Part shown: positions 24,221-45,497 of the stretch, piece after piece
Layout: each line of letters starts with the position of its first letter
How positions within the stretch are numbered: position 1 is the stretch's first letter
Source of the DNA: an uncultured Candidatus Poseidoniales archaeon
Lineage (GTDB): Archaea > Thermoplasmatota > Poseidoniia > Poseidoniales > Thalassarchaeaceae
Length of the DNA stretch: 58,664 bases
Reading direction: 5' to 3'
Assembly: GCA_902573085.1 (NCBI GenBank)
Contig: CACGHY010000004.1
Location: 1-58,664 of the forward strand
Notes under the pieces: generated by a model
What the model was told of the DNA's origin: nothing
The model's input: the letters and a program-made list of their open reading frames with translations, nothing else
Databases searched by the model: none
Position numbers and translations under genes: made by a program

Positions 24221-24234
24221 CAAAAAGAAATAAT

Positions 24235-27113
<2,879 letters not shown>

Positions 27114-27125
27114 TAAATTTCGAGA

Positions 27126-27186: not shown

Positions 27187-27309
27187 TGTGCACGGCCACA
27201 GCGGAGGGGCCCTACCCGGTCCCATATCGAACCCGGAAGTCAAGCCCTCCTGCGTCGGTTCCGGTACTGTGGTGCGAAAGCCCACGGGAAAGACCGTCGC
27301 TGTGCCACT
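27187..27309 (+). rRNA. rrf: 5S ribosomal RNA
   Basis: GCACGGCCACAGCGG...CCCGGTCCCATATCGAACCCGGAAGTCAAGCC...GCGAAAGCCCACGGGAA...GCTGTGC; terminal helix GCACGGC/GCTGTGC; about 120 nt. Confidence 0.95.
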
Positions 27310-34181: not shown

Positions 34182-34481
34182 TTATTCTTCTTCCCCCGAC
34201 CACGTCCCTTCATCTATTTCCTCCATCCCAACTATCTCGTAGTTTGATGGGAAGAGTGCAATGGCCACTCCAATTACTATGCAAGAGATTCCGAACCAGA
34301 ATGACCCTCTTATCATCAACTCCATTCCAATTGCGAATAGAAAGAGGCCGCCGAGATTAGAAACCCAAACAAGGGTCTTGAAAGTAGACAATGAAACCCC
34401 ACTCGCCCTCTTTGTTCTATGTGGGCCGAATTCTGCCCCGAATCTCAATGGATCATCCTTGCCCATTATATCACCGGTCAA
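34182..34481 (-). CDS. Small two-TM membrane protein
   Basis: Two hydrophobic helices; tightly packed between the ferredoxin and ogt genes. Confidence 0.6.
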   Translation of the reverse strand: MTGDIMGKDDPLRFGAEFGPHRTKRASGVSLSTFKTLVWVSNLGGLFLFAIGMELMIRGSFWFGISCIVIGVAIALFPSNYEIVGMEEIDEGTWSGEEE

Positions 34482-34803
34482 TCATAATTATCGCATCGGT
34501 GGGGCAAGCTAATACACAAATCTTGCAACCTGTGCACGGGTCCCTCAGAATTTTCGCTTTTTTATTTACATCCACATCCATAACAGGACTGAGCAGTGGT
34601 GTATCGTACAACTCTATGGCATCGTCCTCACATACTATCGTGCACTGATCGCATCCAATACACAATTCTTCTTTTACCCAAGCAACTGTATCTTCTCCGC
34701 CTTTCAGAAGGGCTTCTTCTTCTGCCCTAACCGAGTTTAATTGCTTCCTGATTCTTGACTGTTCAACAGCCCTTCTCTTGAGCACCTCCTCGGTTTTGGT
34801 CAT
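34471..34803 (-). CDS. 2x[4Fe-4S] ferredoxin-like protein with N-terminal coiled helix
   Basis: CIGCDQCTIVC and CTGCKICVLACP. Confidence 0.9.
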   Translation of the reverse strand: MTKTEEVLKRRAVEQSRIRKQLNSVRAEEEALLKGGEDTVAWVKEELCIGCDQCTIVCEDDAIELYDTPLLSPVMDVDVNKKAKILRDPCTGCKICVLACPTDAIIMIDR

Positions 34804-34875
34804 GTTACTCGGCCTTTGCATCCAGTCCACCCTTATCATAGTGAGTTTGATTCGCGCGCCTTAAGTCACGGTTAC

Positions 34876-35151
34876 ATGAAACCTAGCTACCCACAGACGT
34901 GGTGGCGCGACCCAATGGTTTGGCTAGGCCTTCTTCACGGCGCTGCAATATGGGCCTTTATGGCATCCTTACTCAGCATTTCATCCGCTTGGATTTCCCT
35001 TGCTTGTGGCTTCTTCATAGGGTTCTTCCTGTACTTGGTAGCCTTGGGATATCAGGACTATCGCTTTGCGAGGGCTATACTTGTAGGCCTCGCGATCAAT
35101 CTCTTCCTTTCTTCGCTCTCTGCTATCATCGCTCTTATGGACCAGTCCTAG
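34876..35151 (+). CDS. Small three-TM membrane protein
   Basis: Hydrophobic 91-aa ORF from MKPSYPQ; converges on the b6f-like operon. Confidence 0.55.
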   Translation: MKPSYPQTWWRDPMVWLGLLHGAAIWAFMASLLSISSAWISLACGFFIGFFLYLVALGYQDYRFARAILVGLAINLFLSSLSAIIALMDQS

Positions 35152-37961
35152 TTTTTGGATTCCTCTATCTGCCTGGCCAGGAAGCTCACAACATCAAGAA
35201 TCTCAAAGTCGTGTCTTGGGTCACCCTCGAATTTCAGACACTCGAAGTGTGCAACGCACTTTGGGCATGAGGTGAGCATTATGTCCGCTCCAGTTTCCCT
35301 GACTTCATCGAATCTCTGAACCCTCAGTGCCCTGCTATTCTCGTTGCAGGACATCATGCTTGAGACTCCACAGCATAAGGCATCTTCACCGGTATGCTCC
35401 ATCTCTACCAGATTTACCCCTTCTACAGAGCCTACCAGATCTCGTGGCTCATCGTAGATGTTCATCTGTCTACCCAACCTGCACGGGTCATGGTATGTCA
35501 CAGTGACTTCGTCGTTTGACTTCAGATTCATGTCGAATCCATTCTCAACTAGGAACTCTGTGGTGTGCATCACTTTCATGTCATCCAACTCATAGTCCAG
35601 AGCGAACGTCCTGAAACACTCAGCGCAAGAAGTGACCAATGTTTCAATCCCACTCTCTCCGAGCTTCTTTTGGTTGTATGCCTTTAATTTCTCGAATACC
35701 TCACTCATCCCTTGCCACTTCTGGTCGTGCCCACAGCACTTCAAGAAATCTCGACCCAGGTAGGTGACATCCTCTCCCATTTCCTCGAAAATCGTGAAAG
35801 CTGAAGTCGTAGCATCTCCAAGATCCATCGTTCCTTTGTTCACATGGCTGAAAACCATCTCCTGGTCGATATAATCAACACATCCAGGATAGTATCCTAT
35901 GCTTGAGTCCAACGGGTAATCTTCCACAGGGATGAAAGAATCGTCTGCATCTTCTTCCGCCTCAGCGGCTAATACTGCTTGCAACACCGTGTGCGGTATC
36001 TCCGTGGCAGGAGGCCCACCTACCACAAGGTTCCTTCTTATATCGATGTAAGAGTCGTAATCAACTAATTGTGGACATGCGTTTGTACATGCCGTGCAGG
36101 TCAGGCAGGAGTAAAGTGGAACCCCGTCATCTTCGTTGTTCCACGTATTGTAGATTATGTTGAGTTTATCCCCCGCATTGAACAATCTCACAGGGCAGGC
36201 GTCATCGCACAAATCGCATCCATAGCACTTGTTCATCTCCCACTCGTAGCCACGAGCCATGCTTCTGAGGAACATGAATACCATCGCGCCTACACCGAGG
36301 CACGGTATGAACATCGAGTAAATCAGTTTGGCATCAAGGCTCAGCGGGTTCTTTTGGAAAGTCGGATTTGTCAATGTTAACGAAGCAAGCTCCTCATCGC
36401 TGAGGCTGACTTCAGATCTAACTAGTGCCGTTCCATCTTCTTTGAGAAGTAGAGGCTGGTAGGAAATTGCTGAGAAGTCTGAGATCATTGTGACCGTGTC
36501 ATTGACTTGCTCTGAGATAGTGGTGAAGGAAATCGTGTAAGATCTCCCAGATTCAAGGTAGATTGTGTCAGACTCGCAAGTAGAACCGGAATTCGACCAA
36601 ATTTCTCGGCCCAAATCATCGGTAAGAGTTAGACTCTGAGTGTGGTAACCTGCATTTCGGACGGTTGTCCTGAAGTTGCAACCTATGTCTGTCTGAACTT
36701 CCGAAATTCCGAGGTCTTCAACCTCGAACTGGATGGATTCCGAAATCGAGATAGGGCTGCCGTCTTCCTCTCCTTGGTAGATGATTTCATTGGCCCCTAT
36801 ATTTCTGGATGTTTGCGTATCGGCGTGCCCATTAACCCCGCTGAAGTCTATTATCTGACTACGAGTAGGTTGGAAGATCCCCCAGTTGACAAAATGCTTC
36901 GCGGGTAATACACACCATTCAGAATGCGTCGTACCCTCTTCCATAGTTTCCCAGACAGACAAGGAATCTGTCTCCTCGTATGATAGGCATTCTTCCTCCC
37001 AGTCGTCCCACACAGGTCCCTTTTCAACGTGTATTAAAGAGTCTGCAGGCTGACCTCTTATCCTATCCAACTCGTCGAGCTTGGCATCGTATTGGTACTC
37101 CCAGAATCCCATTGTCCCCAGTCCCCTTTGATTCCAGAAACCATTCTCGTAGACCGGCCAAGTGACCGTGCAGAGTAGAACAGTTGCGATCAAAGATCCG
37201 ACGGCCACCTGTCTACCGAGAATTGGAGTCAACCGAGAACCCATCGGACCGATCAAGAATTTCCTAACCGAGAAATAAAGCACAACGAAGACGAAGACGC
37301 CAGTAAGGATCCATGGAACCGCATTGAAAACTTCGGCAGTCCATGGTGGCTGAGTACCGCAGTTGAATGTTCCATGAGGGCCAATCCAGCAGTAGTCCGT
37401 TCGATTCTGACCATACATTTCCAGGAAGATGTTTATCGAGAATACAGAAATAAACCACACATGCGCTAAGTATACGGCTCCCGCTGTAGCGAACCACGGA
37501 TCCTCGACACCCCTCTTCTCCCTTTTTCCGATAATGAATGGTGGAAGTGCGAGAATGGCCACAGGAACCCCAGTGATCATCGCACCCCACACCCCCGCAT
37601 TCCAAGAAACGATAGGCTGTCCGAAGAACTCACCTATCGGACCAGCAGGGATGTCGAACTGCGGCAAATACTCGCCCCACCTAAGGTATCCGTAAGAGAA
37701 CAGAACGTACCAATCAGGGAAGACGAAACCAGCCTGAGCGTAGGGATCTGCAGCGTTGTGTAAGGGCGGGGGGATGATCCAAGAATAGAATGCTATGACC
37801 ATTACTATCGAGGCGAAAATAATCGTATCTCTGAGAACTTCAGTAGGCCAGAAACCATGACCTGTGTGCACTCTTCTCCTTTCTTCCTCAGCACCAAGCA
37901 ATTGCTCTTTCTCGCTGACATAAGTGTCGGCAATCCTTCCAAATCTTTCAATCAGACCCAT
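35148..37961 (-). CDS. Cytochrome b6f subunit IV-like protein fused to an extracellular domain and a 2x[4Fe-4S]/2xCCG (HdrD/GlpC-like) module
   Basis: FWP..VLRD, PPLHNAADP, PDWY (PEWY motif); CYGCDLCDDACP, CLTCTACTNACP; YYPGC...CCG...TSCAEC and YHDPCRLGR...CCG...TSCPKC. Confidence 0.9.
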   Translation of the reverse strand: MGLIERFGRIADTYVSEKEQLLGAEEERRRVHTGHGFWPTEVLRDTIIFASIVMVIAFYSWIIPPPLHNAADPYAQAGFVFPDWYVLFSYGYLRWGEYLPQFDIPAGPIGEFFGQPIVSWNAGVWGAMITGVPVAILALPPFIIGKREKRGVEDPWFATAGAVYLAHVWFISVFSINIFLEMYGQNRTDYCWIGPHGTFNCGTQPPWTAEVFNAVPWILTGVFVFVVLYFSVRKFLIGPMGSRLTPILGRQVAVGSLIATVLLCTVTWPVYENGFWNQRGLGTMGFWEYQYDAKLDELDRIRGQPADSLIHVEKGPVWDDWEEECLSYEETDSLSVWETMEEGTTHSEWCVLPAKHFVNWGIFQPTRSQIIDFSGVNGHADTQTSRNIGANEIIYQGEEDGSPISISESIQFEVEDLGISEVQTDIGCNFRTTVRNAGYHTQSLTLTDDLGREIWSNSGSTCESDTIYLESGRSYTISFTTISEQVNDTVTMISDFSAISYQPLLLKEDGTALVRSEVSLSDEELASLTLTNPTFQKNPLSLDAKLIYSMFIPCLGVGAMVFMFLRSMARGYEWEMNKCYGCDLCDDACPVRLFNAGDKLNIIYNTWNNEDDGVPLYSCLTCTACTNACPQLVDYDSYIDIRRNLVVGGPPATEIPHTVLQAVLAAEAEEDADDSFIPVEDYPLDSSIGYYPGCVDYIDQEMVFSHVNKGTMDLGDATTSAFTIFEEMGEDVTYLGRDFLKCCGHDQKWQGMSEVFEKLKAYNQKKLGESGIETLVTSCAECFRTFALDYELDDMKVMHTTEFLVENGFDMNLKSNDEVTVTYHDPCRLGRQMNIYDEPRDLVGSVEGVNLVEMEHTGEDALCCGVSSMMSCNENSRALRVQRFDEVRETGADIMLTSCPKCVAHFECLKFEGDPRHDFEILDVVSFLARQIEESKN

Positions 37962-37970
37962 TCAATCACC

Positions 37971-38843
37971 TCAGTGCGGCTCCGCAATCCCTTGAACCCA
38001 GACGATGAATAGGTGGGTCAGAATAAGAACTGTAACAATTAGCGGTAGTACGAAAACGTGTAGGAAGTACATCCTGACAACTGTCTGGCCCGTCAGTGTC
38101 GTCCCACCAAACATAGCATTAGCCACCCATTCCCCAATCAGCGGAGTAGCCATTGCCATGTTGATTCCTATGGTGGCAGCTCCGAAGGCCAGGCTGTCCC
38201 AAGGCAACAAATAACCTGAGTAACCGAAGAATATCGAGAAAAACATTAGAGCTACTCCGATCAACCAATTGAGCTCTCTAGGGTTTCTATATGCCCCAGT
38301 GAAATAGACTCTGCACATGTGCAGAAATACCGCGGCCACGAAAAAGTGCGTGGTCCAATGGTGGACAGATCTGATGATGTATCCGAAGGGAAGCTCTAGC
38401 ATGATAAACTCCATTGATGCGTAGGCTGGGGTTGGATCTGAGTCCAAATCCCCTCCTGGTACGTAGTAAAATCCTAGAATGGTGCCGCTAATGACCAAGA
38501 TTATGAATGCCAAGAATGAAATTCCGCCCAAGCAATACAGGGGGTACCAATACCAGATTATTCTCAGTTTATACTTCTCAGCGTGGGTCAATGGCATCTG
38601 GCGATGCATGCTGTAATAGGAGTCTTTGGACATGCCCCAGTAGTCCTGAATCCTGAATCTAGTATCTAGCCAAGAGAAAGCCCACAGGAACAACTTCTCG
38701 GCAAGACCCATGCTACCAGCATTTGTTTCCACGGCCCTTAGAATGTCCTTTCTCGGCATGTCATCCCTCTCTCTTCTGAGCGTGAAGGCTACAATTACGA
38801 CCACGAAGGCTATGAAGATCCACAGGAACCAGAATTGAATCAT
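37971..38843 (-). CDS. petB: Cytochrome b6-like subunit (N-terminal half of cytochrome b)
   Basis: YCLGG, AYAS, RSVHHW...FLHMCRVYFTGAYRNPRELNW, GYLLPWD, FLHVFVLP...THLF, QGIAEPH. Confidence 0.93.
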   Translation of the reverse strand: MIQFWFLWIFIAFVVVIVAFTLRRERDDMPRKDILRAVETNAGSMGLAEKLFLWAFSWLDTRFRIQDYWGMSKDSYYSMHRQMPLTHAEKYKLRIIWYWYPLYCLGGISFLAFIILVISGTILGFYYVPGGDLDSDPTPAYASMEFIMLELPFGYIIRSVHHWTTHFFVAAVFLHMCRVYFTGAYRNPRELNWLIGVALMFFSIFFGYSGYLLPWDSLAFGAATIGINMAMATPLIGEWVANAMFGGTTLTGQTVVRMYFLHVFVLPLIVTVLILTHLFIVWVQGIAEPH

Positions 38844-38852
38844 TTTTATCAC

Positions 38853-39701
38853 CTAACCGCAGAACGTGTACCAATCCATAAAATCCGGAAGCGCCTCTAT
38901 CAATCCATCATTCACTTTGAATGGGATCAGCGGCATTCCATACGGAGCCGGACCACCGGTCTTCTTTACACCTATGAAGTCGAATTCTTGTCCATTTGAC
39001 CTGTTTCTTGCTGTATTTTTCTCTATTACGGTGTGGTCATACCTGCTGGAGTGACAGATGCAGAATGATTTGTTTCCGCTAGTGTCGGTCCCACCAGGTA
39101 ACCAGGTATCCGCTGTGTAGTCGTTACTAACGAGTTGCCACCCTGGAATGCAACACAAGTGAGGGCATCTGGCGAAAGCAATAATCAAGTTGTCATGGAT
39201 GTTCAATGATGCGTATTCTTCTTTTTCTTCGATTTCAAAGCCGGATCCTACGTATGCGCCACCAGCGGTGTATCCATCCATCAACTGGAACCTTGGGGTG
39301 CCTGCTTCTAATGGCTTGTTTTTGTTTTCCTCATGCGGGACGTATGTGGCTATGATGGGTAAGCCGGACCAAAGCCCCGCAGCTCCGACCATTCCGGTGG
39401 TCGTGTTCGCGGACTCGTCTACGAAAGATTGCAATGTCATGGGCTGTTTGTCCATGCTGCTGTACCACACATCAGAACCCTTGGGGACATAGAATTTTAC
39501 CGCAGAGTCAGACGCCCCTCCCTCTGCTTGACCCATTAAGAAGGAAGCGAATCCCACAGAGCCTAGTGCAGCTGTAGTAATCAGTCCTGCCGATGTATTG
39601 AAAGATAGCCTCATGAACTCCCTTCTGTCTATTCCGCCGCTCCTCTCGTGAATAGCATCACTCTGGGAGGAGATAGGACGTAGCTTAAATTTCCTTGCCA
39701 T
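38853..39701 (-). CDS. petC: Rieske [2Fe-2S] protein with Tat anchor
   Basis: DRREFM twin-arginine motif plus TM helix; CPHLCC and CICHSSRYD boxes; GGPAP. Confidence 0.9.
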   Translation of the reverse strand: MARKFKLRPISSQSDAIHERSGGIDRREFMRLSFNTSAGLITTAALGSVGFASFLMGQAEGGASDSAVKFYVPKGSDVWYSSMDKQPMTLQSFVDESANTTTGMVGAAGLWSGLPIIATYVPHEENKNKPLEAGTPRFQLMDGYTAGGAYVGSGFEIEEKEEYASLNIHDNLIIAFARCPHLCCIPGWQLVSNDYTADTWLPGGTDTSGNKSFCICHSSRYDHTVIEKNTARNRSNGQEFDFIGVKKTGGPAPYGMPLIPFKVNDGLIEALPDFMDWYTFCG

Positions 39702-39703
39702 TT

Positions 39704-40153
39704 TCAGACCTCGTACTTTTTCCAAGAATTAGTGTCATGATTAGTTATGTATTTGTTTCTCCTATGCTTGACAATCACCACATCAGGCAGGACGTATTTT
39801 AGGTACACAATCCCCAAGATTATCAGTGTAAGTAGCGTCATTGCCAAATTAAATGCAAGCAATTGTTGATCCCACTCCTGATACAATCCATATGCTAATG
39901 CGCCAGCCCAATAGAGGGTCCATAGAATGCCCCAAAGACCCACTATTATGATCAGCCAAGAATCCCCAGAAGGCGCCAGACTTGCTCTTACAATAGTCCC
40001 GGGCTTGACTTCATTGAATACTCCGTGATTCACGGCAGCTTCGAAGGACTCCTCTGTTAATGAAGCATCTTCGAGTGCCACTCTTGCGTCTTCGACACTG
40101 ACCTTTCCGGCCTTTACCTCTCGTAGCAGCCTCATAACTACATCGTCTTTCAT
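39704..40153 (-). CDS. Two-TM membrane protein within the Rieske/cytochrome b operon
   Basis: LLREVKAGKVSVEDA N-terminal helical hairpin, two TM helices; ATGA overlap with the upstream gene and 2-bp gap to the Rieske gene. Confidence 0.7.
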   Translation of the reverse strand: MKDDVVMRLLREVKAGKVSVEDARVALEDASLTEESFEAAVNHGVFNEVKPGTIVRASLAPSGDSWLIIIVGLWGILWTLYWAGALAYGLYQEWDQQLLAFNLAMTLLTLIILGIVYLKYVLPDVVIVKHRRNKYITNHDTNSWKKYEV

Positions 40154-40953
40154 AGTTGATCACCTCTTCTCAGATGTTTAATCCTAAGTTTTAGTAAGTT
40201 GCTTCTTCCTTTGTAGTTCCTGGAGAAACCGTATCTAAGGAATAGGCCGCAGAAGAAGATCACCAGTATAACTGCCCCAAAGCCAAGGATTCCCAACCAG
40301 TGGGCTTTGAGCTTAGCTCCCATTTTGTGGATGTCTTTCTTTCCTTCAATCGGTGCTGGTGGATTTATGTCACCGTTTCCTGAAAAAACGGTTTTTGTTC
40401 TTCCGCTATCTTCACCCTCGTCAATGCTGGTCGTTAGACGATTCCAACGGTCTAGACTAGATGGGGCTAAATCTCCGTTTACCGAGTTGCCTGCAACATT
40501 GAAAACCACTGATCCCGAGCCTTCGGACGGACTGGTCCAGACAAACATCCACGACCTATCGGGGGTTCTCGAGCCTGCATCGGTGTGTGTTAAGCTGGAT
40601 GCATCTCCCTCCCAATTCTCAACCATTGACTCGAATCCTTCCGAGGCGCTGAGCGACCCTTGGGTAACAGTCATTGCAAATCCGGCCGTGTGCGAATCGA
40701 GATTCGCGTCCGGACCGCCGATTAATTGCAACTTCATTTCGTAGGAAGTATCTGGGGCATAGTGGAACGGTACCCCATCGATGATGACGGTAACAGAATT
40801 GTCAGGCTCCTCGGCATGACAAGTGCATCCGGCGATTGAAACTTCTCCCTGTCCGTTTGCGTTTCCGCCAACTCCACTGTGCAGAGCTTCACTAGACCCC
40901 GCCACGAATAACGATAGGATTATCAGAGTGAATATCTTACGTTGTGTAGCCAT
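40150..40953 (-). CDS. Exported Reeler-like beta-sandwich protein with CxCH motif and C-terminal membrane anchor
   Basis: Signal peptide ending SSEA, GCTCH, VPFHYAPDTSYEM, GFAM, LTH, W.F.WTSP..GSGSV.F..AGNSVNGD, C-terminal TM helix. Confidence 0.8.
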   Translation of the reverse strand: MATQRKIFTLIILSLFVAGSSEALHSGVGGNANGQGEVSIAGCTCHAEEPDNSVTVIIDGVPFHYAPDTSYEMKLQLIGGPDANLDSHTAGFAMTVTQGSLSASEGFESMVENWEGDASSLTHTDAGSRTPDRSWMFVWTSPSEGSGSVVFNVAGNSVNGDLAPSSLDRWNRLTTSIDEGEDSGRTKTVFSGNGDINPPAPIEGKKDIHKMGAKLKAHWLGILGFGAVILVIFFCGLFLRYGFSRNYKGRSNLLKLRIKHLRRGDQL

Positions 40954-41087
40954 TTTTGCCCCCCCAGCCATTTGTTAATATTCACCAGAAAAAAGGGGGA
41001 TATGAACCTTACACTACAGCCCCTTCGGAGCTGCGTAGTAATATCGTTTTTCAAAAAATTCAAAGGCATCGCTCGACATTAGAGAAT

Positions 41088-41393
41088 ATGGCATCCCCAA
41101 TGTGGAAGAACACATACTCGCTGAACCCAGGACAGATCGATAAACTCGAGGAGGCAGAGAATAAGATGGAATCTATGGAAATAAGCCAAGCAGAGGAAAT
41201 TCTCCTTTCGATGATTAAGTCCGATCCGGATTGTATTCCAGCCTTGAATGTACTCGGTCACCTCAATGGAAGGCACCTCTCAGATTTCGAAATTGCTATT
41301 GAGTACTATGACAAGGTACTACTGCTCGAACCCGATAATGCTTGGGCTAGAGATGAAAGAAGGAGATACCGAAGATACTTGGATTACGATTAG
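41088..41393 (+). CDS. Tetratricopeptide repeat protein
   Basis: DPDCIPALNVLGHL...AIEYYDKVLLLEPDNAWA TPR consensus. Confidence 0.85.
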   Translation: MASPMWKNTYSLNPGQIDKLEEAENKMESMEISQAEEILLSMIKSDPDCIPALNVLGHLNGRHLSDFEIAIEYYDKVLLLEPDNAWARDERRRYRRYLDYD

Positions 41394-41427
41394 AACAGTA
41401 TAAACTGGATACCCAGGTTTGGATTTC

Positions 41428-42333
41428 ATGGAACCCGGATCCATACTAATTGTAGGAGTCGGTGGGATAGGTTGTAGTTGGTCTTCTCGTGCACATGCGA
41501 GATGTCAACAGCTCTCCGAGCTGTTACTTGTTGACGCCGATGAAACCTCTTTCTCTTCCGAATTTGAAGCCCACTGCCTTCATCTGGACGCATCCGGAAG
41601 TGGAAGAGGGACCGCCGCTCTGCCAAATTTGGCTGCACACCGACTCAATGAGGGAGTGGCTAACATCCAAGAGATGCTAAAAAACAGCGAACTTGTGATC
41701 ATCCTAACCGCGTTAGGGGGGGGAACCGGTTCAGGCGCGGCTGCAGAACTCGCTGCTCGATCATCAGAGACAGGAAGCCTTGTCATTAGTATCGTTGGAA
41801 TGCCCTTCGCTGAACAACCTCTGCGATCTGCTATTGCAGACAAGGCTCTGCCTGCAATAGAGAGGAATTCAGATCTGTGCATTCGAGTCAGCCTAGAGAG
41901 ACTTGCATGGCAGGCAAGGCATCGAGAATCTGACTGGAAGATGGGGTCTGAATGGATAGGAGAGTTAATCGAAGGTCTGGTAACAACACTAGCGAGGGTT
42001 GGGAAGATGAATCTAGATTTGATGGACCTTCGGACTATAATTGGTAGACCTGGCAACGCCACTTTGATAGTCGGTAATGGGACTACTTCGAACCCTGACG
42101 AGGTCGTTAGGATTGCTAGAAACTCTCCACTGTCAGAAATATCGATCGATGGGGCCAAAGGTTGTATGATACAAGTGGAGGGGGGGCCAGACATGACGCT
42201 CGGTCACCTGAACATGGTTTCAGAAGCATTCGTGTCAGCCCTGGATGAGGATTGCCAGGTTATTCTTGGTGCGAGAGCAACCGATGACTTAGCCGGAAGA
42301 TTGCGGCTCGTTGCTGTGGTTAGCGGCCTTTAA
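41428..42333 (+). CDS. Divergent FtsZ/tubulin-family GTPase
   Basis: VGVGGIG, ALGGGTGSGAA signature, PF, NLDLMDL (T7-like), GAKGCMIQVEGGPDMTL, VILGA, VVSGL. Confidence 0.88.
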   Translation: MEPGSILIVGVGGIGCSWSSRAHARCQQLSELLLVDADETSFSSEFEAHCLHLDASGSGRGTAALPNLAAHRLNEGVANIQEMLKNSELVIILTALGGGTGSGAAAELAARSSETGSLVISIVGMPFAEQPLRSAIADKALPAIERNSDLCIRVSLERLAWQARHRESDWKMGSEWIGELIEGLVTTLARVGKMNLDLMDLRTIIGRPGNATLIVGNGTTSNPDEVVRIARNSPLSEISIDGAKGCMIQVEGGPDMTLGHLNMVSEAFVSALDEDCQVILGARATDDLAGRLRLVAVVSGL

Positions 42334-45420: not shown

Positions 45421-45497
45421 GGGCCTGTAGCTTAGTCAGGTAGAGCGCCGGGCTTTTAACCCGGTGGCCGGGGGTTCGAATCCCCTCAGGCCCGCCA
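45421..45497 (+). tRNA. tRNA-Lys (anticodon UUU), CCA encoded
   Basis: Acceptor GGGCCTG/CAGGCCC, anticodon arm CCGGG-CTTTTAA-CCCGG, T-loop GGTTCGAATCC, 3' GCCA. Confidence 0.97.

Follow-up and report, generated by a model that had tools for sequence, protein, structure and literature searches.

A five-gene Rieske/cytochrome b locus

Here, we analyzed a window of 58,664 nucleotides (nt) from a Marine Group IIb archaeon (Thalassarchaeaceae, Poseidoniales), and found on its reverse strand, at 35148-40971, five genes (A to E) that point to a b6-type Rieske/cytochrome b complex whose subunit IV runs on into an HdrD-like iron-sulfur (Fe-S) module. An earlier note on this DNA had described the five genes as tightly coupled and the operon as devoid of a CxxCH cytochrome c. 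Both descriptions are confirmed: in the list of open reading frames (ORFs) the genes overlap or are separated by no more than 9 nt, their order is co-conserved among relatives, and a motif scan found CxxCH in none of the five products. The genes are as follows.

Gene A, 40150-40971, reverse strand, 273 amino acids (aa): Sec-type signal, Reeler-fold choice-of-anchor V (chV) ectodomain and C-terminal transmembrane (TM) anchor
Gene B, 39704-40153, reverse strand, 149 aa: cytoplasmic N-terminal domain of about 60 aa and two TM helices, DUF7318-like
Gene C, 38853-39725, reverse strand, 290 aa: divergent Rieske [2Fe-2S] protein of the twin-arginine translocation (Tat) type, one TM helix
Gene D, 37971-38852, reverse strand, 293 aa: cytochrome b6-type subunit, helices A-D and an extra N-terminal TM helix
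Gene E, 35148-37961, reverse strand, 937 aa: subunit IV fused to an HdrD-like module

Genes A and B overlap by 4 nt in the ORF list. The next pair, B and C, either overlaps by 22 nt, with a TTG start, or is separated by 2 nt if gene C begins at the ATG at 39701, which is the start used by relatives. C and D abut, or lie 9 nt apart if the ATG at 38843 is the start, and the spacing between D and E is 9 nt.

The Rieske, cytochrome b6 and small subunits

The gene D product matches the Pfam family Cytochrome_B at 4.8e-41, and its top PDB matches are the cytochrome b6 chains of b6f complexes (6.4e-41), followed by actinobacterial QcrB at about 1e-30. Two histidine pairs, H164/H178 and H265/H280, align with the four b6 ligands of hemes bL and bH, while C107, within YCLGG, aligns with b6 Cys35, the residue that binds heme cn (or ci). 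The cysteine and the heme histidines are invariant in 12/12 aligned sequences (the window and 11 Thermoplasmatota relatives), which bears out the b6-like cytochrome b with a heme-ci position proposed in the earlier note; a second alignment keeps both the cysteine and the histidines in all of its 15 sequences. The helix-D histidines are 15 positions apart, a spacing that we take to be b6-type. Cytochrome b is split, D and E being separate genes.

Gene C has a Tat-like RRxF motif, one TM helix and the two Rieske boxes, C187-P-H189-L-C-C192 (box I) and C222-I-C224-H225 (box II, followed by S-S-R-Y), and these boxes are invariant in 11 sequences. It has no Pfam Rieske match even at E<=5 and stays below the cut-off of TIGR01416 (2.9e-8); a profile search against PDB Rieske chains reaches 7.6e-5. 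According to a legend in PMC3509893, S..Y after box II marks high-potential clusters, and going by this legend the gene C cluster would be of the high-potential S..Y type.

Gene B was recovered by blastp of the ORFs in 23 of 24 loci. It falls just under the cut-off of PF24002 (DUF7318, 1.1e-5), presumably a haloarchaeal family, and its relative in family f23 (f-numbers denote Thermoplasmatota families) matches DUF7318 at 6.4e-13.

Subunit IV fused to an HdrD-like module

Gene E is built of five parts, given here by residues.

Residues 1-270, 37152-37961, reverse strand: subunit IV-like membrane part with helices E, F and G, two extra TM helices and an outer loop
Residues 271-545, 36327-37151, reverse strand: Poseidoniales-specific extracytoplasmic insert with a beta-sandwich core
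Residues 546-564, 36270-36326, reverse strand: last TM helix (TM6), which takes the chain back to the cytoplasm, followed by R566, R570 and K578
Residues 575-631, 36069-36239, reverse strand: HdrC-like ferredoxin domain with two CxxCxxCxxxCP motifs (C579-C589, C619-C629)
Residues 690-906, 35244-35894, reverse strand: two HdrB-like CCG domains

Within residues 575-906, Pfam finds a di-cluster Fer4 domain and two stretches of CCG (PF02754, 9.4e-23), and the CCG cysteines make up two full C...CC...CxxC sets (C694, C742/743, C779/782 and C827, C863/864, C899/902). The best NCBIfam matches are of the TfrB, LdhH, GlpC and DsrK types, all under their cut-offs. Taken as a whole, the C-terminal piece reads as an HdrD-like module. 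The first 290 residues, searched alone, reach b6f subunit IV at E=0.13, with the PEWY region aligned correctly, and PF00032 at E=0.15. Matches are stronger for a profile of the shorter family members described below, which reaches the C-terminal half of bacterial cytochrome b at 1e-13, b6f subunit IV at 1.1e-9, HdrC at 2.8e-9 to 4e-9 and HdrB at 3.2e-9, and PDB 9ojn_A, an ‘Iron-sulfur-binding reductase’, most strongly of all (9.4e-38). The fusion of subunit IV to Fe-S/CCG domains, as claimed in the earlier note, is borne out, the subunit IV part being assigned by profile and motif. The Qo motif P82-D-W-Y85, which aligns with the PEWY of b6f subunit IV, is invariant in 8/8 family members, as are all Fe-S cysteines; C191, H196 and C201 of the outer loop are invariant as well.

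Gene E has six TM segments and gene D five, and the first cluster cysteine of gene E lies 15 residues past the last TM helix. By our reading of the sequence, basic residues cluster at the N-terminus, in loops 2-3 and 4-5 and past TM6, and therefore the PDWY loop and the insert are predicted to lie outside and the Fe-S module in the cytoplasm. A Tat-exported Fe-S module, as in the dual Sec/Tat polyferredoxins (PMC5449189), was considered and rejected, since a twin-arginine motif is absent before TM6 and basic residues follow it.

The insert has a beta-sandwich core at about residues 392-502 with invariant C428 and C462. Its AF2 model has a predicted local distance difference test score (pLDDT) of 59.5 overall and 70-90 within the sandwich, and Foldseek returned generic beta-sandwich matches only (for example GOLD, CBM and MAM). 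In one f2 genome (G027:C9:10518-14510, that is L015:6019-10017) the ortholog, an ORF of 1339 aa, has a further large insertion within its outer middle domain. Complex prediction for cytochrome b, gene E residues 1-300, gene B and gene A residues 30-273 gave scores of 0.10 and 0.04, the mark being 0.32, and this speaks neither for nor against binding.

The closest named relatives of gene E, up to 96% identical, come from metagenome-assembled genomes of Candidatus Poseidoniales, Thalassarchaeaceae and Thalassarchaeum, and their source records label them only as ‘Fe-S oxidoreductase’, ‘heterodisulfide reductase subunit D’ or ‘(Fe-S)-binding protein’. Most Poseidoniales genomes searched also encode another HdrD-like, membrane-associated paralog, with ORFs of some 665-700 aa that share about 30% identity with gene E residues 616-933, for example at G211:C1:1362986-1365028 (reverse strand) and G002:C13:9854-10795.

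Conservation of the operon and a wider family

The earlier note had suggested examining whether the genes are co-conserved across Poseidoniales. The order and strand of A-E are identical in 14/14 loci from three Poseidoniales families and in 72/80 named Poseidoniales loci; these 80 are the best from one scan of a genome collection with gene E, all of them Poseidoniales, distant carriers being beyond its scope. In the remaining eight, the contig ends too near upstream of gene E for the other genes to fit. All 41 relatives searched gave a gene E match, and those with the distant paralog only are genomes of 53-84% completeness. The conservation of the operon is well above chance.

The family extends beyond Poseidoniales. 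In f4, a sister family in the same class as the Poseidoniales families, the same operon is found in 3/3 loci, but gene E is split past the Fer4 domain into a gene for subunit IV plus the HdrC-like part and a gene for the HdrB-like part. An all-against-all search of representatives yielded short fusions of subunit IV with HdrD, 543-626 aa long, which have the same two ends and lack the insert. Among 401 Thermoplasmatota genomes, they are present at full length in f23 (5/5), f25 (4/4) and f31 (1/1), to which the representatives P0129, P0134 and P0124, respectively, were tied by likeness to the loci; the other representatives are P0127, P0133 and P0135. The short fusions always adjoin a b6-type cytochrome b, and a canonical Rieske gene, recognized by motif, is also adjacent in the 6/6 loci of f23 and f25. 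In the short form, helices E, F and G are followed by one more helix and the HdrD-like part, while in the Poseidoniales form two further helices and an outer domain, some 270 residues long, separate helix G from the final helix.

The neighbors on both sides of the membrane differ among families. In f23, a cupredoxin (PF00127, 4.1e-18) and an immunoglobulin (Ig) domain are fused to the outer N-terminus of cytochrome b (L136:7786-10425, reverse strand), and in f25 four Big_5 Ig-like domains take this place (L139:3303-5918, forward strand). The true start of the f23 gene probably lies further downstream, because the start of the 879-aa ORF overlaps the Rieske ORF; the cupredoxin domain remains inside the ORF all the same. 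The extra N-terminal helix of the window cytochrome b appears to be an anchor that matches these outer-domain fusions. Since the outer and inner neighbors vary by family, we propose a constant core on which the outer acceptor and the inner donor or acceptor modules are swapped. Three ORFs from relatives of high guanine-plus-cytosine (GC) content (L139:2313-3281, L139:1021-2109 and L136:11921-13795) were dropped as apparent wrong-frame artefacts.

Candidate cytoplasmic partners

Two further genes lie downstream of the operon.

Gene F, 34471-34839, reverse strand: 2x[4Fe-4S] ferredoxin with a helical N-terminal extension; best NCBIfam match rnfB-like
Gene G, 34182-34481, reverse strand: small membrane protein of 99 aa; no family match; found with gene F in 12/14 loci

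Gene F is a candidate cytoplasmic partner of the complex; it is present in 77 of the best 80 Poseidoniales loci, and in 74 of them it lies downstream on the same strand. As far as the accessible part of PMC6336850 goes, surveys of Marine Group II (MGII) have reported cytochrome b and Rieske proteins without a canonical bc1 complex, an ‘MGII specific complex III’ and an orphan RnfB; the latter is probably gene F, because the best NCBIfam match of gene F is rnfB. In f4, two ferredoxin-like genes lie downstream. Between genes E and F of the window, a hydrophobic ORF of 111 aa on the forward strand (34816-35151) has 51-73% identity in five same-genus loci and a weak FecCD match, and is listed here as a candidate gene.

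In f23 and f25, HdrA-like genes for flavin adenine dinucleotide (FAD)/Fe-S proteins lie directly downstream of the short fusion in 6/6 loci, one of them with a FlpD/MvhD domain (3.3e-16). Examples are the following.

L136:3367-5985, reverse strand: HdrA-like gene
L139:7506-9296, forward strand: HdrA-like gene
L138:5885-7405: HdrA-like gene

This arrangement looks like a Qmo/Hdr-like set joined to a Rieske/b6 core. With the HdrA-like query used, neither the window nor any of four Poseidoniales genomes yielded an HdrA-like or MvhD-like partner: G000, G211 and G203 gave only Rossmann-motif matches of about 40 residues (E of at least 4e-5), and G026 gave none. The earlier note proposed that the complex may be coupled to a thiol/disulfide or ferredoxin reaction, with cyclic or bifurcating electron flow, and this putative chemistry gains indirect support from the HdrA/MvhD-like genes beside the same fusion in other Thermoplasmatota and from the ferredoxin gene downstream in 74/80 loci.

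The HdrA-like flavoprotein is the bifurcating unit of Hdr, and its place beside the fusion in f23 and f25 would suit a quinol-based bifurcation, in which the Rieske/O2 branch would push the second electron uphill, either to ferredoxin by way of the Fe-S module or to another acceptor by way of HdrA-like FAD. The S..Y mark of a high-potential cluster in gene C, in the sense of the PMC3509893 legend, would also fit, and anammox Rieske/cytochrome b complexes have been proposed, in the available part of PMC12954380, to make NAD(P)H. However, the four Poseidoniales genomes yielded no HdrA-like partner with this query, an aerobic heterotroph that oxidizes 2-oxoacids should presumably have a surplus of reduced ferredoxin, and the step would run uphill against the membrane potential. 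We therefore hold bifurcation to be very improbable.

Gene A and the outer side of the complex

Gene A has a signal-like N-terminus, a G-C49-x-C51-H52 motif and, at the C-terminus, a TM anchor (226-244) with a basic cytoplasmic tail that is conserved. This topology of signal, ectodomain and C-terminal anchor is that of cytochromes c1 and f, and gene A is a candidate outer partner or acceptor of the complex. C49, C51, H52 and H215 are invariant in 25 orthologs. The protein matches NCBIfam choice-of-anchor V (NF041895) at 1.1e-23. The Reeler likeness named in the earlier note was recovered by fold: the AF2 model (pLDDT 82.7) has the Reeler domains of F-spondin as its best Foldseek match (9.4e-7, target TM-score (TMt) 0.63), and atlas searches returned Reeler leads only. 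Gene A itself has no match to PF02014 (Reeler) at E<=0.01, while chV paralogs reach 0.0015 (19.5 bits, below the cut-off) and 0.00019 (22.4 bits, cut-off 21).

A search of the phylum with the chV profile revealed several paralogs per genome, and the GCxCH near the domain start is kept in 3/3 paralogs of G000 and 5/5 of G211. In G211, CxCH occurs in 10 of 1,914 ORFs, and five of these ten are chV proteins. In a 780-aa protein of G000, one paralog makes up the N-terminal domain and COX1 (PF00115, 2.5e-137) the remainder. The fused gene is found at three places, those in G211 and G203 having been read from coordinates.

G000:C10:6762-9128, reverse strand (L151:1763-4102): chV::COX1
G211:C1:13726-16035: chV::COX1
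G203:C5:530405-532438: chV::COX1

The fusion has an N-terminal signal, the GCxCH Reeler-fold domain and an extra TM helix, and in G000 its operon reads COX2, chV::COX1, COX3, COX4. G068, an f4 genome, has chV as a gene of its own that adjoins COX1. All chV-positive families in the phylum sample are 100% PF01578-positive, which is weak evidence because related genomes are not independent samples and aerobic life may underlie both traits. The third G000 paralog, of 340 aa (G000:C1:65191-66210, forward strand; L152:192-1211), has GCSCH and a C-terminal multi-TM region, and is flanked by a gene that reads as PntB-like and by a TatC gene (Pfam 3.6e-10).

The earlier note had allowed for a conventional cytochrome c1 encoded elsewhere in the genome. 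None was found in five Poseidoniia genomes, that is G000 and four of at least 91% completeness (91-97%), two of these single contigs: the c1, class I and cbb3-type cytochrome c families (PF02167, PF00034, PF13442) have a match in 0/5, while the control genomes do match, multiheme families being outside the search. All five genomes have blue copper proteins, COX1, CcmC/CcmF-type proteins and CcmE. The system I cytochrome c maturation (Ccm) set of G000 is as follows.

G000:C16:4563-6929: CcmF-like
G000:C18:17851-18573: CcmC-like
G000:C1:81190-81489: CcmE, ending in CxxxY

By our reading of its sequence, G000:C8:21619-23244 encodes a thioredoxin-CcdA-like fusion. We read through the CxxCH ORFs, 8 in G000 (at least 100 aa) and 12 in the complete G211 contig (at least 70 aa), and saw no plausible cytochrome among them; they are thioredoxin-like proteins, zinc ribbons, Fe-S motifs and repeat-rich surface proteins. 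The simplest bold reading would be that the CxCH domain is the substrate of Ccm, with copper binding or a structural role as the alternatives.

A structural role deserves serious weight on this side of the membrane. Gene A may be a structural, assembly or surface-attachment subunit, with the Rieske protein giving its electron directly to a blue copper protein. We know of no redox cofactor bound by the Reeler domains of F-spondin, the best fold match of gene A, and the cupredoxin fused to f23 cytochrome b and the blue copper proteins in 5/5 genomes would supply the acceptor; a halocyanin model has been proposed for haloarchaea in the parts available of PMC8305020 and PMC3509893. Against this stand the GCxCH cysteines and histidine, invariant in 25/25 orthologs and kept in the paralogs of both genomes, the chV domain fused to or adjoining COX1, the place of gene A at the head of the operon with a c1/f-like topology, and the presence of CcmC/E/F and CcdA-thioredoxin genes without a plausible CxxCH substrate. 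We regard a non-redox gene A as a real possibility, though somewhat short of an even chance.

A more far-reaching reading makes the whole aerobic chain of Poseidoniia and related Thermoplasmatota free of cytochrome c. The chV domain would be a new extracytoplasmic electron-transfer domain, carrying either covalent heme, attached at CxCH through CcmC/E/F, or copper. It would stand in for c1 at the Rieske/b6 complex and for cytochrome c at the oxidase, and a supercomplex might hold them together; the HdrD fusion would turn the complex into a ferredoxin/flavoprotein/thiol:quinone:acceptor oxidoreductase. The complex would then be the first natural example of an n-side donor hard-wired to heme ci, and the disputed cyclic route from ferredoxin to b6f would become directly testable. 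We consider this quite unlikely in its entirety. If it were proven to be a cofactor domain, the CxCH domain could be categorically new.

Proposed electron flow

We propose a b6-type Rieske complex in which the n-side hemes are wired to a cytoplasmic HdrD-like port, with electron input from ferredoxin and gene A as the outer acceptor; we put the probability of this reading at roughly 0.45, a little under even odds. Quinol would be oxidized at the PDWY Qo site, and the Rieske cluster would take one electron and hand it to an outer acceptor other than cytochrome c1, most likely gene A, the membrane-anchored GCxCH protein that comes first in the operon. Blue copper proteins are possible carriers between gene A and the oxidase. 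On the n side, the low-potential bH/heme-ci end would be wired through the two cubane clusters to the two CCG clusters, and this wiring would form a fixed cytoplasmic electron port of the complex.

In Poseidoniales, electrons would most likely enter the port from the neighboring 2x[4Fe-4S] ferredoxin and proceed to the Qi/heme-ci site. Ferredoxin input is favored because the ferredoxin neighbor is conserved and because MGII lead an aerobic heterotrophic life, as described for Poseidoniales/MGII in the accessible part of PMC6336850. The complex would then be a hard-wired version of the ferredoxin-to-heme-cn route debated for b6f, an ‘original Mitchell Q cycle’ fed by a donor on the n side; the part of PMC7908018 available to us discusses, for b6f, the entry of ferredoxin electrons from that side at heme cn. 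In f23 and f25, which are sediment relatives, the port would be served by HdrA/MvhD-like flavoproteins, giving a Qmo/Hdr-like hybrid.

The same module could also be run in the opposite sense, for which HdrDE and DsrMK offer a precedent, as a quinol:disulfide reductase or bypass of the Q cycle. Electrons would go from Qo through bL, bH and ci and the two [4Fe-4S] clusters to CCG domains that reduce a cytoplasmic disulfide or persulfide, on a small thiol or a carrier protein, with the Rieske/b6 core in place of a NarI-type cytochrome b. As in catalytic HdrB, the cysteine set is complete in each CCG motif; the CCG domains are membrane-distal, beyond the Fer4 wire, where a terminal site usually sits; and the best family matches are TfrB, DsrK, HdrC and HdrB. 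However, the conserved neighbors are ferredoxins or HdrA-like flavoproteins, with no disulfide carrier gene conserved in the cluster, and draining the low-potential chain would cost proton yield of the Q cycle. We know of no heterodisulfide metabolism that could be named for Poseidoniales, and their aerobic heterotrophy, as far as PMC6336850 describes it, also counts against such an enzyme. On balance, a quinol:disulfide reductase seems unlikely.

Several observations weigh against ferredoxin input and a redox-active gene A. The roles of CCG proteins vary, from disulfide reduction (HdrD/DsrK) and quinone-linked transfer (GlpC/SdhE) to thiol oxidation (sHdr), and a CCG domain fixes neither direction nor substrate; the membrane-bound HdrD-type systems HdrDE and DsrMK send electrons outward to the CCG site, opposite to the direction favored here. 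Gene F is not strictly operonic, as it lies 308 nt from gene E in the window with an opposite-strand ORF between them, and in MGIIa its orientation and distance vary, with no gene F seen within about 6 kb in 2/14 loci. Heme ci in the gene D product is predicted from one conserved cysteine, and gene C and the subunit IV part of gene E are too divergent for Pfam and were therefore assigned by profiles and motifs. On the outer side, gene A has a weak adhesive-domain match, and two of the five G211 chV paralogs head TSP3- or PKD-repeat surface proteins about 885 aa long; such paralogs fit a structural or adhesive role as well as a redox role. G000 is 62.6% complete. Marine RNA libraries from two studies contain contigs that are 90-99% identical to the operon and span all of the A/B, B/C, C/D and D/E junctions, but these contigs attest presence in an RNA library and are no proof of transcription or of one transcript. 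More generally, the direction, cofactors, contacts and electron transfer that we propose go beyond the domain identities, complete motifs, rule-based topology and co-conservation from which they are drawn.

MGII are among the most abundant planktonic archaea and are still uncultured. The locus shows the complex III of MGII to be of the b6 type, with an Hdr-like Fe-S module built in, and it joins two bioenergetic families that are normally apart, Rieske/cytochrome b and Hdr/Qmo/Dsr. These results go beyond the earlier note in that the family is wider than MGII, the MGII insert consists of two TM helices and an outer domain, and chV is fused to COX1. In the literature, subscription reviews and supplements not being covered, we found no description of the subunit IV-HdrD fusion, the wider family or the chV domain. 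If the module feeds or drains heme ci, the complex would be a natural model for the purpose of heme ci and for stromal ferredoxin input to b6f as treated in the accessible part of PMC7908018. A CxCH Reeler-fold domain on both a quinol oxidase and an oxygen reductase bears on the electron path to oxygen in a large share of ocean archaea, and its conservation in genomes with Ccm in which no CxxCH cytochromes were seen is a separate puzzle that is open to biochemistry.

Other features of the window

Divergently upstream of the operon lie two forward-strand genes, both kept in 14/14 Poseidoniales loci.

40956-41393, forward strand: TPR-like protein (weak Pfam matches)
41419-42333, forward strand: 304-aa protein with a GGGTGSG signature

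Going by this signature, the 304-aa protein may be tubulin/FtsZ-like. The other features noted are RNA genes; no 16S gene is present in the window.

24230-27118, forward strand: 23S rRNA gene
27188-27308, forward strand: 5S rRNA gene
45421-45494, forward strand: tRNA gene

The GC content rises at 24-28 kb because the 23S and 5S rRNA genes lie there.

Comparison with known systems

The closest likeness of the core is to b6f and to the split bc complexes of Firmicutes and heliobacteria, which belong to the ‘green clade’ of Rieske/cytochrome b complexes. Split cytochrome b, the heme-ci cysteine position, P(D/E)WY in subunit IV and a Tat-exported Rieske protein are common to both. In contrast to these, the operon described here has no cytochrome f, c1 or fused c domain, and its host is a non-photosynthetic archaeon. 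Cytochrome b6 and subunit IV make seven helices in the green clade, whereas here subunit IV has a fourth helix, in MGII two more and an outer domain, and continues as an HdrD-like cytoplasmic module, while cytochrome b has an extra N-terminal helix.

The module itself resembles the membrane-bound HdrD-type modules, which are HdrDE, DsrMK and QmoABC with its HdrA-like subunits. They have the same two CxxCxxCxxxCP motifs and two CCG domains, likewise set against the cytoplasmic side of a membrane protein with two b hemes, and in the f23/f25 relatives HdrA-like and MvhD-like genes follow the module, as in Qmo and Hdr. Unlike in HdrDE and DsrMK, the membrane partner is here a Rieske/cytochrome b6 pair with a Qo site instead of a NarI/HdrE-type protein, and the module is covalently fused to subunit IV.

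In the anammox complexes, NAD(P)-linked flavoproteins and multiheme proteins are added as subunits of their own in place of an HdrD-like fusion, and the hosts are bacterial and anaerobic. What they have in common with the present complex, as far as the available part of PMC12954380 goes, is a Rieske/cytochrome b core proposed to couple to a cytoplasmic low-potential redox reaction.

Haloarchaeal petABD is likewise archaeal, with split cytochrome b, no c1 and a copper protein, halocyanin, as the proposed acceptor (PMC3509893 and PMC8305020, in the parts available). The DUF7318-like gene B hints at an accessory protein common to both. However, the haloarchaeal cytochromes b lack the heme-ci cysteine (PMC3509893) that is invariant here, and the parts of these sources available to us report no HdrD fusion; because the haloarchaeal split cytochromes b are without this cysteine, the window complex would represent a different archaeal lineage of the ‘green’ type.

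Placing one kind of outer domain on both the quinol oxidase side and the oxygen reductase recalls two further systems. Bacillus QcrC joins subunit IV to cytochrome c, and caa3 oxidases have a fused c-type domain, much as chV stands in the operon and is fused to COX1. The chV domain differs from these in having a Reeler fold with CxCH instead of a class I domain with CxxCH, and in being fused to subunit I of the oxidase and not to subunit II.

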